A stretch of DNA of 64,000 nucleotides, taken from positions 1,280,001 to 1,344,000 of the forward strand of contig JBMNLH010000001.1 in assembly GCA_050952625.1 (NCBI GenBank), in the 5' to 3' direction. Under the pieces are notes generated by a model. It worked only from the letters and a program-made list of their open reading frames with translations. It had not been told where the DNA came from and searched no databases. The position numbers and the translations under genes are program-made. Origin of the DNA: Bacillota bacterium. GTDB lineage: Bacteria; Bacillota; Ch66; Ch109. The first letter of the stretch is position 1; each line of letters starts with the position of its first letter. This document shows positions 3,997 through 13,653 of the stretch, one piece after another.

Positions 3997-4562
3997 GATT
4001 CATCACCTTCTTTAACTAATTGACTTTGTAGGTGGTCAAAAAGTTTAACCTTGGCTCTAGAAAGCAATTTTTTTACTGTTCCAGTAGATACACCCATCGC
4101 GTACGCTATATTTTTTTCCGTCATATCTAAATGATATCGGAGAATAACAGCCTCACGTTCCTTGATTGTCAGCTTCATTAAGGCCTTTTTTACAATTTCC
4201 TGTGTTTCCTTGCGTTCAACGAATTCTTGAGGGAAATCAAAATCTGAAGGCAATTGATTAAGGGTATTAACGTTTGAGGATACGAATATCCGTTTATTTC
4301 GTTTTAAATTGTTTTTGGCTATATTAAATGCGATAGACATTAGCCACGCCCCAAAACGATCCGGATTTTTTAATTGAGTTATTTTTTCTATAGCTTGGGC
4401 AAACGCTTCTTGAGTGACATCCTTGGCTAAATATTGATCCTTAGTATAGAAAAATATCGCGTTCATTATTTTATTATAATATTTTTCAATGACTAAATCC
4501 CAAAGAGAATAACCGTTTTCTGGAAGTCGAGGCATTTTGGCTCCCCCTAAGTTTTGTTGCAT
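3993..4562 (-). CDS. ECF RNA polymerase sigma factor
   Basis: Region 2 (AKDVTQEAF…FGAWLMSIAFN) and region 4 (LTIKEREAVILRY…IAYAMGVSTGTVKKLLSRAK). Confidence 0.95.
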   Translation of the reverse strand: MQQNLGGAKMPRLPENGYSLWDLVIEKYYNKIMNAIFFYTKDQYLAKDVTQEAFAQAIEKITQLKNPDRFGAWLMSIAFNIAKNNLKRNKRIFVSSNVNTLNQLPSDFDFPQEFVERKETQEIVKKALMKLTIKEREAVILRYHLDMTEKNIAYAMGVSTGTVKKLLSRAKVKLFDHLQSQLVKEGDES

Positions 4563-4770: not shown

Positions 4771-6024
4771 CTAAGAAGCGATAACACCGTCGGAATCTAC
4801 GACCAGAAAACCGTGACGCTGAATGAAAGCGACTGCTTGCTCCACAGTAAAAGCACGGTTAGCAGGAATGGACACCACGTTTCTATAGAGATTGGGGTTG
4901 TAGGCTTCGGATTTTTTGAGGATGGCGTAGATCGCGGTCAACAACATCCTGCAAATGGCAATGATGGCTTTCTTGTGCCCACGACGCTTTTTGAGCGCAA
5001 GATAACGGCTTTTGATTTCAGGGTGCTTGTCTGAATTGCAGACGGTAAGAGCGCACTGAACCAAAAGTGGCTTGATGTAAGCTCCGGCACGGTTGATACG
5101 GGTAGACTTTTTCTTACCGGCACTCTCGTTGTTTTGCGGTGTAAGTCCCGCCCAAGAGCAAAGGTGCTTGGCCGTAGGGAACACGGACATATCCACGCCG
5201 ATTTCCGAAATAATAGCGATGGAGGAAAACAGTTGGATACCCGGTACGGTCATAACCAGCTCAAATTGAGAACGAAACTGCTCGGCAAGCGAGAGAATGG
5301 CAGATTCAAGACTAGCCTTGCAGAACTTCAGACTATCCATGTGGGAACGGATAATCTTTAACTTTTCAACCTGCTCGGGGCACATCAAGCCGTCAATAGC
5401 AGCTTGGATTTTGTCCGGTGATGCTTTGCAGCGACGATCAATAAACGGAGTAGCGTCAAAGTCCCCGTCGGGATGCGCAAGCAACTGTTCAGTAATAGCG
5501 GAAGCACTTTTACCAAAAACATCAGAGAAAACATCGTCCAATTTGATATTGGAAACGGTAAGGCAATTTTGAGCGCGGTTCTTCTCTCCGACAGAGAAGT
5601 TGGTCAACTTGACACGGTAGCGCATGAGGTCGCGGAGTTGCCGGATGGCAAAGGGCGGGATAAAGCTGCCTGAGACCAAATCGTGCTTGAAGATGTCGGC
5701 GATCCATTTGGCGTCCTTGGTGTCGGTTTTCTTGCCACGGATGGCTTTGACGTATTTAGGATGAGCGAGAACCACTTTACAGGTGGATTCGAGCATGTTG
5801 TAGACGGGGATCCAGTATTTCCCCGTAGACTCCATACAAACATCCCGGCAACCATGCTCCGCAAGCCATTGACCCAGCCGGCGGAGGTCACCTGTAAAAG
5901 TGGAAAATCTGCGCCGTTGGTAAGTCGTAACACCCTGGTCGTCGGTTGCCGCGATACAAGCTACGACGAAGGACTTGTGGACGTCGATTCCACAGCAGAC
6001 TGGATAAACGATTTTGAGTGCCAT
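4771..6024 (-). CDS. IS110 family transposase/recombinase
   Basis: GIDVHK, MESTGKYW, KTDTKDA, WAGLTPQNNESAG motifs. Confidence 0.95.
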   Translation of the reverse strand: MALKIVYPVCCGIDVHKSFVVACIAATDDQGVTTYQRRRFSTFTGDLRRLGQWLAEHGCRDVCMESTGKYWIPVYNMLESTCKVVLAHPKYVKAIRGKKTDTKDAKWIADIFKHDLVSGSFIPPFAIRQLRDLMRYRVKLTNFSVGEKNRAQNCLTVSNIKLDDVFSDVFGKSASAITEQLLAHPDGDFDATPFIDRRCKASPDKIQAAIDGLMCPEQVEKLKIIRSHMDSLKFCKASLESAILSLAEQFRSQFELVMTVPGIQLFSSIAIISEIGVDMSVFPTAKHLCSWAGLTPQNNESAGKKKSTRINRAGAYIKPLLVQCALTVCNSDKHPEIKSRYLALKKRRGHKKAIIAICRMLLTAIYAILKKSEAYNPNLYRNVVSIPANRAFTVEQAVAFIQRHGFLVVDSDGVIAS

Positions 6025-7985: not shown

Positions 7986-8101
7986 TTAGCTGTGAAAATG
8001 AGTGTTTTGTAAGCGCTCAATATTCAGGTGCATGGTCAACATGCCCTAGCCGTGAGAAAATATCTCCATGAAACTAAGAAAATAAGACATGGGGGTATTA
8101 G

Positions 8102-8398
8102 ATGGACATAAACGAACAACGGTCATTGGTAGCAGAATGCCGGGCCAGTGGGATGACAGCAAAAGCTTGGTGCGAAGCCAAAGACATTAATTACCGGCGA
8201 TATCTAACTTGGGCAACCAAAGTTAATCGAGAAAAACAACATGGATCACAGCAATGGGCAGAGGTGATGATTAAAAAAGAGAAATACATTCCAGGCGAAA
8301 TTAGGCTTAACTGTGGCAAATGGACAATTTGTGTAGAGAGTGGGTTCAGTCCTGCACTCCTTGCAGATGTCCTTCGGGTTGTTGATGATTTATGCTGA
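8102..8398 (+). CDS. tnpA: IS66 accessory protein TnpA
   Basis: CRASGMTAKAWC…W HTH-like first ORF. Confidence 0.85.
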   Translation: MDINEQRSLVAECRASGMTAKAWCEAKDINYRRYLTWATKVNREKQHGSQQWAEVMIKKEKYIPGEIRLNCGKWTICVESGFSPALLADVLRVVDDLC

Positions 8399-8754
8399 AA
8401 GACATCACAAGTTACGATGGAATCTATTTAGCGTGCGGAGTTACAGACCTTAGGCGTTCAGTAGACGGTTTAGCCACCATTGTGAAACAGCAATTCAATA
8501 TGGACCCGTTTGGGAACTATCTTTTCCTGTTTTGTAACCGAAACCGCAATCGGCTGAAGGCCCTAAGCTGGGATCGCAACGGTTTTGCCATGTACTACAA
8601 GAGGCTGGACGGCGCAGGAGCCCGGTTTATATGGCCCAAAGAGCCGGCCAATGTAAGAAACGTAACGGTCAGGCAGCTTCGCCTGCTTATGGAAGGTCTG
8701 TCCATAGACCCACCAAAAGGATTTGGTGAAGTCAGAGCTAGGGATTTCTGCTAA
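8392..8754 (+). CDS. tnpB: IS66 accessory protein TnpB
   Basis: TDLRRSVDGL…LFLFCNR…LSWDRNGF…KRL. Confidence 0.93.
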   Translation: MLKDITSYDGIYLACGVTDLRRSVDGLATIVKQQFNMDPFGNYLFLFCNRNRNRLKALSWDRNGFAMYYKRLDGAGARFIWPKEPANVRNVTVRQLRLLMEGLSIDPPKGFGEVRARDFC

Positions 8755-8876
8755 GGCAAAAATACCCTCTTGAGATCCAGAAATCCTCCGTTTTCGGTGC
8801 CTAAATTTCATGCATAAAATGCCTGAAACCCTTGATATTGCTGGATATTCGGTTATTTTTATGGTATAATTAAAGC

Positions 8877-10475
8877 ATGGAAAAAGTCGATTTGACGGGC
8901 CTTTCGCCCGAAGTAACTGCATATATCTCAAGCCTCGAAACGCAGCTTAAAGAACAGACCAAAACAGTAGAATCACAGAAAGTTCGTATTGACCGGCTCA
9001 TGGAGCTGCTGGCCAATTTACAAAAGGCCATGTATGGCCAATCCAGCGAAAAAAGAAAGTACGTACTTGGCGAGGAAGATAATCAGCTTTCCTTGTTCAA
9101 CGAAGCGGAGGCCGAGTCAAACCACAAAGCCCCGGAGCCTGACAAAGTCTCGGTTGCCGGGCATACCAGGAAAGCCAAACGTACCAAGGAAGAATTAGCC
9201 GCGAACGCTCCCGTAGTGGAAATCATCTGCGATCTAGATGAAGAAAAGCAAGTCTGTGAAGAATGCGGCGGCAAAATGCGGGTTCTGGGCAAAGAACCGG
9301 TCCGGGAAGAATTAGAATTCATCCCGGCCCAGGCAAGGCTCCTTCGGTATATCCGATACAGCTATGTTTGCGAAATCTGCGAGAAGGAAACGGGAGAAGC
9401 TACGATAATTAAAGCACCCACTCCCGCACCGGTTATAAAGCGGAGTCTTGCTTCAGCGTCTAGTGTGGCCCATGTTATATACCAAAAGTATGTCAACGGT
9501 ATGCCGCTGTACCGGCAAGAAAAAGACTGGGCCAATCAGGGAATAATCCTTTCCAGAGCGACCTTGGCTAACTGGATCATCCGCTCAGCAATCGACTGGC
9601 TGCTACCGCTATGGGAAACCATGAAATTCCATCTCCTGAAGCAGGCTGTGATTCATGCGGATGAGAGCGTTATCCAGGTATTGAAGGAAGAGGGAAAGAA
9701 GCCATCCTCCGAGTCGCGGATGTGGGTATATTGTTCAGGTAATACCGGGGAGGCACCAGTGGTGCTGTTTGAATACCAACCCACACGATCAGGCGAGCAT
9801 GCACGGCGATTCCTGGAAGGTTTTCATGGATTTCTTCAAACCGACGGCTATAGTGGCTACAATAAAGTCCCAGAGGTAACCCGATGTGGATGCTGGAGCC
9901 ACCTGCGTCGGAAATATCAAGAGGCCATGCCCAAAAGTGGCAGTCTTAAAGACTCCGCTGCCACAGTAGGATTTGAATACTGTAATAAGCTGTTTGCCAT
10001 TGAGAAAGATTTGGAACAACTCTCTCCAGAGAAACGAAAAATACAGCGTCAGGAACAATCTAAACCAGTTCTTGAGGCTTATTGGTCATGGCTTGAAACT
10101 GTAAACCCTCTCCAAGGCTCCAAACTTGGCGAAGCCATAACCTATTCAGTTAATCAAAAAGCTTCATTGTGTACGTTTTTAGAAGACGGTCGCATTGAAT
10201 TGTCTAATAATCGAGCGGAGAATGCGATCCGACCCTTTGTTCTAGGAAGAAAAGGCTGGTTATTCGCGGATACGAAAAAGGGAGCCCAAGCGAGCGCAAT
10301 CGCCTACAGCATTGTAGAAACGGCCAAGGCAAACGGACTTAATGTATACATGTACCTGGTACATATTTTTAGTAAAATGCCGGCACTTGACTTTAAGACT
10401 GACCCATCACTCCTTGAGGACTTGATGCCCTGGTCACCCAAGCTGCCGAATTACTGCCGCAACACAAGACATTAA
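8877..10475 (+). CDS. tnpC: IS66 transposase TnpC
   Basis: Leucine zipper, CxxC zinc finger, HADES, QTDGY, CWSHLRRK, NNRAENAIR. Confidence 0.95.
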   Translation: MEKVDLTGLSPEVTAYISSLETQLKEQTKTVESQKVRIDRLMELLANLQKAMYGQSSEKRKYVLGEEDNQLSLFNEAEAESNHKAPEPDKVSVAGHTRKAKRTKEELAANAPVVEIICDLDEEKQVCEECGGKMRVLGKEPVREELEFIPAQARLLRYIRYSYVCEICEKETGEATIIKAPTPAPVIKRSLASASSVAHVIYQKYVNGMPLYRQEKDWANQGIILSRATLANWIIRSAIDWLLPLWETMKFHLLKQAVIHADESVIQVLKEEGKKPSSESRMWVYCSGNTGEAPVVLFEYQPTRSGEHARRFLEGFHGFLQTDGYSGYNKVPEVTRCGCWSHLRRKYQEAMPKSGSLKDSAATVGFEYCNKLFAIEKDLEQLSPEKRKIQRQEQSKPVLEAYWSWLETVNPLQGSKLGEAITYSVNQKASLCTFLEDGRIELSNNRAENAIRPFVLGRKGWLFADTKKGAQASAIAYSIVETAKANGLNVYMYLVHIFSKMPALDFKTDPSLLEDLMPWSPKLPNYCRNTRH

Positions 10476-10941
10476 AGAAAAGATGTTGACACAAAACCCC
10501 AGCACGATGTAGATGAGTTGTGCTGGGGTTCGCTTTTGTCAATGCACCTGAATATTAACCGCTTACAGTGTTTTTAAAAGTACTTAGTTTATTAAGTGCT
10601 AGGGTAATATGTCAACCCCCTAATAGAACAAATATTTTTCCCGTATGAAAGGTATACAAAATCAAGGCCACCTGAAAAGCGCACATTTGTCCGCCAAATC
10701 AAGATGCCTCCTTATATATGGTTTTAATGCACTTCAGTTAACCTGGAAGTGCTTGCGGGCCTCAAATTAGACACAAAAGGCTAAGCTCATGAGGCCAAAA
10801 CTCAACCTTCAAAAAGCGATATTTCATCCCTCCTGGGCCTTACCGCCAATGGGTCAACAGACGTATCAAACCGGCAGCAGAACAGCAGACAGCGGCGGAT
10901 GGTGGACATTAACAGTAAAGTAATCGTGATATAAAACTCAA

Positions 10942-12186
10942 TCAAGTGCGTGGTGGTTGGTAGATCTTATTAGTCGATAAGAGCGTATAAATCAAACGTA
11001 CAAATTTACGAGCCGTCAGTACCAAAGCTCGTTTGTGCGCATGAGTTCTCGCCTCGTTGTATTTTTTAGCATAAAAAGCCTGATATTCTGAAGTGTGTCT
11101 ACGGAGTTGATCAGCCGATTGGATCAAGTAGTAACGTAAATAACTATTACCGCTGCGATTCAACGGCGTCTCATCCGCTGTGAAGTCACCTGACTGATGT
11201 TCATTCCAGGTTAGCCCTGCGAATTTAGCTAATTTAGACTGATCGGCAAAGCGGGAGATATCTCCTATCTCAGAAATAATTCCGGCCGAAAGAACCGGGC
11301 CAATACCAGGTATTGAGATCAATGGGTTAAAGATCGGCCTCATTTCTCGTTCAATAGTGTTGTTAATCTTATTCACAGATTGTTCAAAAAAACGAATGTT
11401 GTTCATACTTAGTTCGAGAATAGTATTAACCGAACTAGCCATATTTGGTTTCAACCGGTAAGCATCGCGAGCAATCTTTTGAATCTGTACTGCCAGGTCA
11501 ATAGGCGACTCAAACTTATAGCGGCCCTTCTCTGCCAGAAACACCGCTAATTCCTCCAGGGGCATAGCGGCAATCTCATCAGTGGAGAAAAAATCATTGA
11601 TCAAAGAAAGGCTAGCGGTACCAAATGGATTGCTAAAATCCGAATTATGATAAGTACTGAATTTCAAAAAGAGCATGTTCAAAAAGTAGTTCTTTTCTCG
11701 AATCAGAGATCCGATTAGATGAAATCGATAACGGGTCAGACGTTGTAGGGGTTGATACATATCATCGACCTCGTATGGTGGGGGAAGGCCTCGGCCCAGT
11801 CGCAAGCGTTCTGCGATCATCAAGGCATCATAGGTGTCGTTTTTTCCCCGCAAGGGATAAGACTTCTTGAAATTCTTGATAATACGCGGATTAATTGCAT
11901 AAACCTGAGGCTTATATGGCTGTAAAACTGTGGACTGGACTAGAAAATTCAGCAGGTGATAGTGAAAGAACGCGGTAGCCTCCATACCGATACGTAACTT
12001 TATCACCTTAACTTCAGCCATAACCTCAAGAATTTTATTCACTAGTCTTTCGGCCCCACCCTGGGAATTTTCGAAAACAAATTTAGGTAACGGGATATGC
12101 TCATCCGAGATTACAAAACAAGCGACATTGGACGATTTGCTGACATCAATACCAACAAACAAGGTATCCCAAGACAAACGAAGCAC
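10942..12186 (-). CDS. IS110 family transposase/recombinase
   Basis: VGIDVSK, GMEATA, KNDTYDA, FAGL…QSG motifs. Confidence 0.95.
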   Translation of the reverse strand: MLRLSWDTLFVGIDVSKSSNVACFVISDEHIPLPKFVFENSQGGAERLVNKILEVMAEVKVIKLRIGMEATAFFHYHLLNFLVQSTVLQPYKPQVYAINPRIIKNFKKSYPLRGKNDTYDALMIAERLRLGRGLPPPYEVDDMYQPLQRLTRYRFHLIGSLIREKNYFLNMLFLKFSTYHNSDFSNPFGTASLSLINDFFSTDEIAAMPLEELAVFLAEKGRYKFESPIDLAVQIQKIARDAYRLKPNMASSVNTILELSMNNIRFFEQSVNKINNTIEREMRPIFNPLISIPGIGPVLSAGIISEIGDISRFADQSKLAKFAGLTWNEHQSGDFTADETPLNRSGNSYLRYYLIQSADQLRRHTSEYQAFYAKKYNEARTHAHKRALVLTARKFVRLIYTLLSTNKIYQPPRT

Positions 12187-12224
12187 CTCTCAGTAAGCAG
12201 ATTTTCTTCGCTCCGATCCGGTGC

Positions 12225-12395
12225 AAGCAGAACAGCCTCGCTGTATTAGAACACATCTTGAGGCGGGAGACGGCCAGGACCTGCTGCCACCCTGGTCAAC
12301 CACAAGCGGAACAGGCTAGGGTTAGAGCCTTTACACCGTTGGACGAAGAGACAGACTTTATTAAGCAGTCAGTGCTGCAGGAGCTAATGGCTTGA
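12225..12395 (-). ncRNA. Putative bridge RNA unit 1
   Basis: Minus strand: CTCCT-hairpin(GCAG/CTGC)-TAATAAAG target loop … GCGAG donor guide. Confidence 0.6.
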
Positions 12396-12485
12396 GAATT
12401 TATCTGGCTTACTAACTTATCAATTATAAAGACAAAGGCATGTCTGGTAAAGTATTAAGCTTATTACCCCCAAGAAAGCGATGGA

Positions 12486-12510
12486 AGAAAAAAGCCCGTC
12501 GAAACGGGCT
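12486..12510 (-). terminator. Terminator between the two bridge RNA units
   Basis: Minus strand AGCCCGT-TTCG-ACGGGCT-TTTTT. Confidence 0.75.
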
Positions 12511-12539
12511 AATAACCTATAAAAGCCAACATGTCTACC

Positions 12540-12668
12540 AGCGCAAACAGCCTCGCATAACAATTAGAACTTAACGAACAAGCTAAGAGTTAGTATTACG
12601 CCAGATAGACCGGGGAACGCACACTTAAAGAGCAATCAGGTTGCAGGGAGAATTAACGCCACCCCCGA
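12540..12668 (-). ncRNA. Putative bridge RNA unit 2
   Basis: Minus strand: CTCCCT-hairpin(GCAA/TTGC)-TTAAG matches the actual target; TTATGCGAG matches donor TTATACGAG. Confidence 0.65.
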
Positions 12669-13185
12669 CTACGAGCAGCCTGTCAGCTACACTATAGAAT
12701 TAATATTCTTGAGTTCTATCGATTTTTAAGAGAAATGGTAATACCAGAATTAGCAATTTTTGATTTGTAAGGTAAGTAGTATGAAAGGCATGACGTCCTA
12801 CCCTTCAACTGCAAGAAGAACGAGCAACCATGTTGATCAATGTTGGAATAAGGGGTAGCGTAACCCGCCTGAATTAGGGTGAATCACTTTTCTGTGATTT
12901 ATATCCCTCAGGTTTCCCCATAAGCCAACTATCATCAAATGACAGATCAGGATTATATTTCGAACGCATCACCTCATAATTTAATGAAGCTTAAGACCAC
13001 CATCCATAACCTTCAGCTTCCTCTCGTACATCCGTTGCGCAATGTGTGGATATCCATATGTACATTGAGAGGTTGCCAAATCGATTTCCGATGGTCATGG
13101 CTCCATGTTTGGAACCGGTTCCTACGCTAAGGGGCTGATTAAAAGTCCCTTGGCCTGATCACTATTATACGAGGGAGGTAAAAAG

Positions 13186-13653
13186 GTGATGTTTAAAAAG
13201 TTTTATAAAGTGAAAACATTATCTGTCGTAATTGCTCTTGTTGCTGGTTTTTTAGTAGGGACACTTTATTTCATACCTGTAGTAGCTTTTAGCCAATCTA
13301 GCCAAGATATTGTGTCTGTTCCGGTATTTCCAGTTAATAAAAATGGAGAGACATATGGTTCCCTCGCTAAGGTTAATTCTCCCGGACAAGAACCAGATTT
13401 AGTTATGGCAATAGGGGTGGATGGGACTCGTGGATATGTTAAATATGTTGACTTGAATGGAAAACAACCAAGAACACCAGAAGAAGCTATAGCTTTACAA
13501 AACAGTAGACTAAAGGAAGGCCCTAAAACAATTCCACTATATGATGTTGATGGAAAAACTATTATAGGCGAATTTAAAATCAGTAAACCAAAGGGTATAG
13601 AAATAACCAAAGAAACTACGCAGGAAGATATTTTTAAGGTGTTAGAAAAGTAG
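13186..13653 (+). CDS. Secreted/membrane-anchored hypothetical protein
   Basis: N-terminal TM/signal; FPVNKNGETYGS…EPDLV…GTRGYV…IPLYDVDGKTIIGEF. Confidence 0.85.
   Translation: MMFKKFYKVKTLSVVIALVAGFLVGTLYFIPVVAFSQSSQDIVSVPVFPVNKNGETYGSLAKVNSPGQEPDLVMAIGVDGTRGYVKYVDLNGKQPRTPEEAIALQNSRLKEGPKTIPLYDVDGKTIIGEFKISKPKGIEITKETTQEDIFKVLEK

Follow-up and report, generated by a model that had tools for sequence, protein, structure and literature searches.

An IS110-family element with two bridge-RNA-like units that may divide target and donor recognition

The stretch of DNA analyzed here, called the window, spans 64,000 nucleotides (nt) of the genome of a Bacillota bacterium (assembly GCA_050952625.1, contig JBMNLH010000001.1, positions 1,280,001 to 1,344,000). 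It contains an IS110-family element at 10595-13173 on the minus strand. The element is 2579 nt long, with the CT core counted at both junctions. It encodes a recombinase in a 414-amino-acid (aa) open reading frame (ORF; 10942-12186, minus), whose true start probably lies a few codons in. The recombinase has the Pfam domains DEDD_Tnp_IS110 (PF01548, 7.3e-26) and Transposase_20 (PF02371, 2.7e-21). The gene is flanked by non-coding ends of 985 nt upstream (left) and 347 nt downstream (right). By every sequence feature tested, the element is a member of the IS110 family. Its left end carries two guide-RNA units, unit 1 beside the gene and unit 2 farther upstream. We lean toward the view that the bridge RNA has been duplicated and its labor divided, so that unit 2 would read the target and unit 1 the donor.

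The genome contains no other full copy of the window element; tblastn gave five further matches in it, at most 31% identical. Because the element is single copy, its ends were placed by homology with relatives. We used multicopy relatives (five genomes, 2-4 copies each) and an alignment of right ends. On the upstream side, the copies in the five genomes part exactly between ...CCTC-CT and CGTATAAT.... On the downstream side, they diverge between ...TTGACAnnnTTACCnnnnnn-CT and T.... The CT core forms both junctions in the multicopy relatives and in the window. The left end, CT-CGTATAAT (13164-13173, minus), is conserved in every relative with a readable left end. It holds the CT core of the left junction (13172-13173) and a -10-like TATAAT (13164-13169). 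The right end, TTGACATATTACCCTAGCA-CT (10595-10615, read 10615->10595, minus), was placed by aligning the downstream regions of the closest relatives. In the end alignment it holds a -35-like TTGACA (10610-10615, minus), the left-donor sequence ACCCTAGCA (10597-10605, minus), and the CT core of the right junction (10595-10596, minus). A right end near 10853, beside a supposed IS66 end, was rejected, as the IS66 inverted repeats lie at 8008-8039 and 10536-10567.

On the plus strand, the occupied site reads ...GTTTATTA-AG-(element)-AG-GGAGGTAAAAAGGTGATG. The flank GGAGGTAAAAAGGTGATG (13174-13191, plus) is the left target as seen from the element. It contains the Shine-Dalgarno sequence and the start of ORF 13186-13653, and the insertion point lies directly upstream of that Shine-Dalgarno sequence. 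The flank ACTTAGTTTATTA (10582-10594, plus) is the right target as seen from the element.

Unit 1 lies at ~12200-12416 (minus), the canonical position beside the recombinase gene (nhmmer E 3.3e-43). Unit 2 is the upstream copy at ~12530-12712 (minus; nhmmer E 1.4e-17; covariance model, 98 bits). The two are homologous over the whole unit in a pairwise alignment and in a 13-sequence alignment. The motif AACAGCCTCGC occurs in both, at 12231-12241 and at 12546-12556. A first-pass annotation, made from the letters of the window, had described two diverged copies of one motif set here, and the motif positions, alignments, nhmmer, and covariance model agree with it. It had also suspected further degenerate units in the non-coding end. 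There were exactly two nhmmer unit matches in the non-coding end of the window element, and a covariance model built from unit 2 gave two window matches (12522-12722 and 12204-12420). Neither method found a third unit in 12713-13163 at E values up to 1. That interval is a spacer of ~450 nt (12713-13163, minus) between the terminus and unit 2, with no recognized content. It is not present in three aligned relatives, occurs once in its own genome, and contains a 63-aa ORF for which Pfam gave no match. Rfam 15, which may or may not hold a bridge-RNA family, gave no match at E up to 1 in 10500-13600.

Relatives of the element were gathered at loci L008 and L019; L009, L010, and L017; L016, where the contig is cut; L018; L096; and in genome G457. 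The recombinases of the two-unit relatives are 56-59% identical to that of the window, and that of G457 is 76% identical to that of L009. G457 contains seven copies of its element, identical or one base apart. Two nhmmer unit matches were found in every clade locus with a complete upstream end (the window, L008, L009, L010, L017, L018, L019, L096, and the seven G457 copies). One match was found in the other detected relatives (L035/L063-66, L053, L075, L077/78, and L080/81). Across sources, the unit 2 covariance model found unit 2 strongly (98-196 bits) and unit 1 weakly. It found unit 1 in 8 sources and missed it in L009 and L017. Together, the nhmmer and covariance-model searches give two units per element in the clade and no third. 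The order of the units is the same in the relatives, with an invariant TATAAT between them in four aligned elements. The two-unit layout was found in eight lineages, and these were scored for guides (the window, L018, L009, L010, L017, L008, L096, and G457). Since the layout recurs in all of them, including a genome with seven copies, it is, on this comparison of sequences, not a decayed nested copy.

Searches of other collections added no member of the clade. Among 401 genomes of the window's own phylum, 38 matched, all at no more than 51% identity. Among 400 genomes of the phylum of G401, the sole match was G401 itself. A plasmid collection yielded no clade member (best identity, 48%), and viral contigs scanned for the right-end word gave 0 matches. 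The record of L008 is labeled Bacteroidales, and the other named records are Desulfoscipio (Firmicutes). The Bacteroidales label may reflect horizontal spread or a binning error. The recombinase gene of L010 (2875-4214) is split into two ORFs by a frameshift or stop, and that of L096 has an in-frame TAG, so some clade copies are decaying. L090 (G402:C44, ~1495-1710) is a solo left end with a unit 2 fragment, truncated right after the donor-like loop of unit 2. L089 and L092 are smaller fragments of units 1 and 2.

Both units have consensus structures with compensatory changes. RNAalifold gave 45 consensus pairs for unit 1 (9 sequences), of which 18 have a compensatory change. It gave 23 for unit 2 (8 sequences), of which 11 do. 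A covariance model and a count of units per element had been put forward in the first-pass annotation as a check, and they gave two units, both with compensatory pairs. In unit 1, 91.6% of cells were paired, and slid controls had 2-9 both-side-changed pairs. In unit 2, 91.3% of cells were paired, and slid controls had 3-7. The observed value was reached by 0 of 500 shuffles for either unit. Sliding the 3' partners by 1-3 columns lowered the paired cells from 91% to 26-55%. By eye, the hairpin of the unit 2 target loop is GCAA/TTGC in the window and GCAG/CTGC in L018. A long hairpin with a CAGCAG loop is kept by unit 1 alone, with 7 of 8 pairs compensatory in helix 8. This motif lies ~90-160 nt before the gene in most relatives. 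Unit 2 does not have the long donor-loop hairpin. The hairpin of the target-like loop of unit 1 is conserved, with one compensatory pair (helix 3). By structure and guide logic, both units are bridge RNAs as far as sequence can tell. A pairing seen by eye between the 5' strand of unit 1 and the unit 2 stem was dropped because it does not covary in L008 or G457.

The second unit might instead be a nonfunctional relic of a tandem or nested duplication of the upstream end, an outcome that the first-pass annotation had itself raised. The missing donor-loop hairpin of unit 2 would suit such a relic, as would the truncated fragments at L089, L090, and L092. However, both units are kept in elements whose recombinases have diverged to 56-59% identity with that of the window. 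Unit 2 has its 11 compensatory pairs, and its guide follows each element's own flank, unlike a dead relic. The trace of an old end-to-end junction between the units is not above chance; a reading of the unit 1 promoter as such a fossil junction was rejected, as 37-486 of 500 shuffles reached the local alignment score. With the layout conserved in eight lineages and the units covarying, we regard a relic as very improbable.

The target loop of unit 2 reads TTCTCC-CT / hairpin GCAACCTGATTGC / TCTTTA-AG (12624-12652, read 12652->12624, minus). Its strands fit the occupied site, as had been noted from the sequence. CTCC-CT matches the window flank by 6 nt, and 26 of 2,000 shuffles reach 6. TTA-AG fits the other flank, CT-TAA, and the TTAAG strand of unit 2 is present in all lineages. 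The target-like loop of unit 1 reads TTAGCTC-CT / hairpin GCAGCACTGACTGC (GCAG..CTGC) / TTAATAA-AG (12356-12387, minus). This confirms, at somewhat greater length, the strands CTC-CT and TAATAA-AG reported for it earlier. It matches its own flank by 3 nt.

Guide matches were scored as the longest suffix of the flank plus CT that recurs in the unit. The test of position used 10 nt of flank plus CT. The match between unit 2 and the flank was 6 nt in the window, 7 (of a possible 7) in L018, 6 each in L009, L010, and L017, 13 in L008, and 4 in L096. At the seven G457 sites, it was 7, 5, 6, 7, 5, 7, and 4 nt. In 7 of 8 lineages, the unit 2 target strand thus agrees with its own flank over 6 nt or more. 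The numbers of shuffles (per 2,000) that reach the unit 2 match were 26 for the window, 11 for L018, 9 for L009, 10 for L010, 32 for L017, 0 for L008, 296 for L096, and 44 for G457. At a threshold of at least 3 nt ending in the CT core, the match between unit 1 and the flank was 3 nt in the window and 0 in the other seven lineages. The unit 1 strand at the target-guide position reads CC-GT, CC-AT, CC-TT, or CC-GA in the other lineages, whereas single-unit relatives, read by eye, have C-CT there. In the solo fragment L090, the flank reads AACCTC-CT and the unit 2 guide GTCCTC-CT, so that CCTC-CT is common to both (by eye).

The single-unit relatives locate the guide differently. By eye, the 5' strand of their first internal loop ends in C-CT before the hairpin and has the same letters as the flank. 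One such strand, TTTCACTC-CT, can be compared with four G289 flanks, of which one ends in ACACTC-CT and three in TCACTC-CT. In 35 of 41 single-unit rows (upstream ends of 328-701 nt), the flank is matched best at 220-257 nt before the recombinase match. In 8 of 8 two-unit rows, the best match is 426-495 nt before it, a position inside unit 2. The matching strand of unit 2 is farther 5' in the L009, L008, L096, and G457 lineages than in the window and L018, and it precedes the GGTGGTGA element.

The first-pass annotation had pictured a multiplexed system, in which one recombinase uses two working bridge RNAs on the Shine-Dalgarno variants TTAAGGGAG and TAAAGGAG. We did find two bridge-RNA-like units in an IS110 element. 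The window's unit 1 has GCTC-CT / hairpin / TTAATAA-AG with the CT core rightly placed, and it has a promoter-like site of its own, with a terminator-like hairpin after unit 2. The two classes of target did not appear. In none of the other seven lineages does unit 1 match any flank by 3 nt or more up to a terminal CT, and the site of the window itself fits unit 2 by 6 nt and unit 1 by 3. The insertion sites do not split into two classes: all seven G457 flanks end in TC-CT, all fit unit 2 (4-7 nt), and none fits unit 1. The window element is single copy, and nothing shows a second class of site. Multiplexing over two targets is thus hard to credit, if a little less so than a relic.

The donor guides point to unit 1. 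Its left-donor guide, CTAACCCTAGC-CTG (12312-12325, minus), has an 8-nt match, ACCCTAGC, to the right end. The left donor guides had been called weak from the sequence, and for unit 1 this is not so. Over the eight lineages, the match between unit 1 and the right end, in the strand before AGC-CTG, is 8, 8, 6, 6, 6, 6, 6, and 6 nt. L018 has a T->C change in the unit 1 left-donor guide and in the right end alike. The corresponding strand of unit 2, CTAACTCTTAGC-TTG (12579-12593, minus), is decayed, and only TAGC (4 nt) matches the right end. Over the same lineages, the unit 2 match is 4, 5, 6, 6, 6, 7, 6, and 3 nt. The window (4 nt) and G457 (3 nt) have the shortest matches. In those two, where the strand has decayed, the element would depend on unit 1 for donor recognition. 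An earlier idea, that the unit 2 donor-like AGC-A/T-TG is broken relative to the AGC-C-TG of unit 1, was dropped because single-unit relatives vary there (CTG, TTG, and TCG; by eye).

The right-donor guides are present in both units. That of unit 1, ..GCGAG (12237-12244, minus), forms 5 contiguous pairs, one of them a wobble, with the left-end CT-CGT. That of unit 2, TTGTTATGCGAG (12552-12563, minus), forms 4 strict pairs, or 12 with wobbles, with CT-CGTATAATAG. Unit 2 TTATGCGAG is identical to the first bases of the element at 8 of 9 positions, as had been reported, and pairs contiguously over 12 positions if three G.T/U.G wobbles are allowed. G(C/U)GAG faces the left end in both units. Over the lineages, unit 1 forms 5-6 pairs and unit 2 forms 5-12 pairs with wobbles; the G457 unit 1 has 6 strict pairs to the left end. 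On these matches, unit 2 is the unit predicted to read the target, and unit 1 is the one that appears to read the donor most reliably.

Unit 2 might also be one complete working bridge RNA, with target and donor loops. Unit 1 would then be a retained leader of the recombinase mRNA, either regulatory or a helper for donor-only excision, and would not be needed for insertion. Unit 2 has the left-target guide in 7 of 8 lineages and the TTAAG strand in all. In five of the eight it also has a left-donor match of 6-7 nt, and in all eight a right-donor guide. Unit 1 lies directly before the recombinase start, as a leader would. Against this, the left-donor guide of unit 1 matches in 8 of 8 lineages and changes T->C jointly with the right end in L018. 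Unit 1 retains the long donor-loop hairpin with its compensatory helix 8, which unit 2 does not have. The left-donor strand of unit 2 matches by just 4 nt in the window and 3 nt in G457, where the seven near-identical copies indicate recent activity. We consider a self-sufficient unit 2 unlikely, but it is the strongest of the rivals.

Promoter- and terminator-like signals bear on how the units might be expressed. A promoter-like TTTACC-17-TATAAT lies upstream of unit 1 (12423-12451, read 12451->12423, minus; 10 of 12 matches). The first-pass annotation had pointed out this TATAAT, and it is kept in the relatives, where it is invariant among the four aligned elements. A 3-kb scan found 5 promoter-like sites, with a shuffle mean of 6.3. 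As this count is not above shuffles, the support for the site is its conservation at the same place in relatives. The minus-strand terminator proposed between the units corresponds, in the window, to a terminator-like hairpin and T run (12488-12510, minus; hairpin 12510->12493). The hairpin is not found in three aligned relatives. Judging by the sequences of the ends, a gap of 17 nt would separate the right-end TTGACA from the left-end TATAAT on an excised circle. In L009-type elements, unit 2 starts ~60 nt past the terminal TATAAT. The contigs of four DNA sequencing runs contained no circle junction, empty site, or joint.

These observations suggest the following model. The bridge RNA would have been duplicated in the lineage of this IS110 element, and the two copies would then have split the work. 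Unit 2 would carry the working target-binding loop, in which the left-target guide and CT core track the flank. Unit 1 would carry the working donor-binding loop, with its left-donor guide, right-donor guide, and the long apical hairpin typical of the family. Its target-like loop would no longer recognize the target. In recombination, the target loop and the donor loop would be drawn from different RNAs. Both units may be transcribed as separate RNAs. Unit 1, through its own promoter-like site, would supply donor loops in the integrated state, which may be enough for excision. Unit 2 may be made mainly from the excised circle, because the terminal TATAAT upstream of it is brought together with the right-end TTGACA in that form alone. 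It is possible, though we hold it tentatively, that this is a natural two-gene system with different RNAs for excision and insertion. Target recognition would then have moved to a circle-made unit 2, and a donor-only unit 1 with its own promoter would drive donor-only excision.

Several points weigh against the division of labor. The lineages are few, about five being independent (the window; L018; L009/L010/L017; L008/L019/L096; and G457), and the structures tested for covariation came from the same alignments. Taken singly, the 6-nt matches are modest evidence, because all flanks are C-rich anti-Shine-Dalgarno words. L096 fits (8-9 nt, by eye) only with a one-base register shift. Unit 2 keeps a left-donor match of 6-7 nt in most lineages and a right-donor guide in all, so in most lineages it could act alone, and the division would be asymmetric rather than clean. 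The unit 1 of the window, unlike the others, has CT at the guide position. The target-like loop of unit 1 is still conserved with its hairpin, and the model does not explain why. The promoter scan found no promoter-like site for unit 2 inside the window element. There, ~450 nt of unique sequence separate the terminal TATAAT from unit 2, so the circle-promoter proposal is weaker for the window than for the relatives.

The long right non-coding end (10616-10941, minus) is conserved within the two-unit clade. TTGACA lies ~316-329 nt past the transposase match in most two-unit clade loci (261 in L019) and ~115-202 nt past it in most single-unit relatives. The right non-coding end of the window (10616-10941) and that of L009 (4210-4540) contain hairpins and a Shine-Dalgarno-like AAAGGTGAT..ATG without a conserved ORF. 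The window flank GGAGGTAAAAAGGTGATG resembles AGGTAAAAGAAAGGTGATGG inside the right end of relatives (L009, ~4295-4320); both are like ribosome-binding sites, and the resemblance may or may not be chance. The ORF at this window flank, 13186-13653, encodes 155 aa with a hydrophobic, signal-peptide-like N terminus and has no Pfam match. The insertion cut it off from its former upstream sequence.

Three mobile elements lie within a 9-kb part of the window. A complete IS66-family element spans 8008-10567, with 32-nt terminal inverted repeats that are 88% complementary. It contains small ORFs at 8102-8398 and 8392-8754 and a 532-aa transposase gene at 8877-10475. A gap of 27 nt separates its end (10567) from the right end of the IS110 element. 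Another recombinase gene of the IS110 family, distantly related, lies at 4771-6024 (minus). It encodes 417 aa with both Pfam domains and is 28% identical to the one studied here.

IS621 and other IS110-group elements are described with a single bispecific bridge RNA (Durrant et al. 2024, PMC11208160). Like IS621 as presented there, the window element has a DEDD and Tnp recombinase, a long upstream RNA-encoding end, and a CT core at both junctions. It likewise has guide strands that match target and donor, and a promoter would be split between its two ends. Unlike IS621, it has two paralogous RNA units, and in its clade the flank-matching guide appears to have moved from the canonical unit to the upstream copy. 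It is also long by comparison, at 2.58 kb with non-coding ends of 985 nt (left) and 347 nt (right).

The nearest known cases, as far as the accessible accounts go, are the CazIS110-1 target-loop transcript, tandem repeat units beside IS110 genes, and ssr9 of ISPpu9. In CazIS110-1 from a thermophilic Firmicute, a target-loop-only RNA is reported to act beside the full RNA (Sun et al. 2025, bioRxiv 10.1101/2025.10.25.684509). Unit 2 would likewise be a second RNA species with a working target loop. The CazIS110-1 RNA is described as a shorter transcript of the same gene, whereas unit 2 is a second locus. Tandem non-coding repeat units and expanded IS110 loci have been reported (Hu et al. 2026, bioRxiv 10.64898/2026.08.14.744561). 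Those loci also have repeated non-coding units beside the recombinase gene, in elements longer than 2 kb. The main account treats the repeats as products of local expansion and not as two diverged guide RNAs with separate roles, although its supplements may hold such cases. ISPpu9, also of the IS110 family, has an additional small-RNA module, the MITE-like ssr9 (Pares-Guillen et al. 2025, PMC12288879). As described in that article, ssr9 is located downstream of the gene, is bounded by element ends of its own, moves alone, and is dispensable for transposition. Unlike ssr9, unit 2 has no element ends seen around it, and its one solo fragment (L090) is truncated. Full-text searches and the accessible passages yielded no description of a single element whose two diverged bridge-RNA genes have distinct roles; supplements may catalog such architectures.

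The proposed division of labor fits two published ideas, as set out in the available texts. For IS621, it has been proposed that separate bridge-RNA molecules supply the target and donor loops of one synaptic complex (Hiraizumi et al. 2024, PMC11208158). This would be a mechanistic basis for two RNAs each giving one of the loops. The paired IS621 molecules are identical copies of a single RNA, whereas here they would come from two different genes. IS621 also undergoes donor-only (DBL-DBL) "half-match" excision (Xie et al. 2026, bioRxiv 10.64898/2026.08.31.748434). Such excision would let a donor-loop-only unit such as unit 1 drive excision. It is presented for a single RNA, and the text available describes no dedicated donor RNA.

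In the accessible accounts, bridge recombinases are described as one protein with one bispecific RNA. If the division of labor is real, nature already uses separate target and donor guides. The element would be a natural test case for a synaptic complex whose two loops come from different RNA molecules. It would hint at a way for an element to place excision and insertion under different promoters. In this clade, pipelines that equate the bridge RNA with whichever RNA lies closest to the recombinase gene would misread the target guide. The clade would also be a precedent from nature for splitting the guide into target and donor parts that can be programmed separately.

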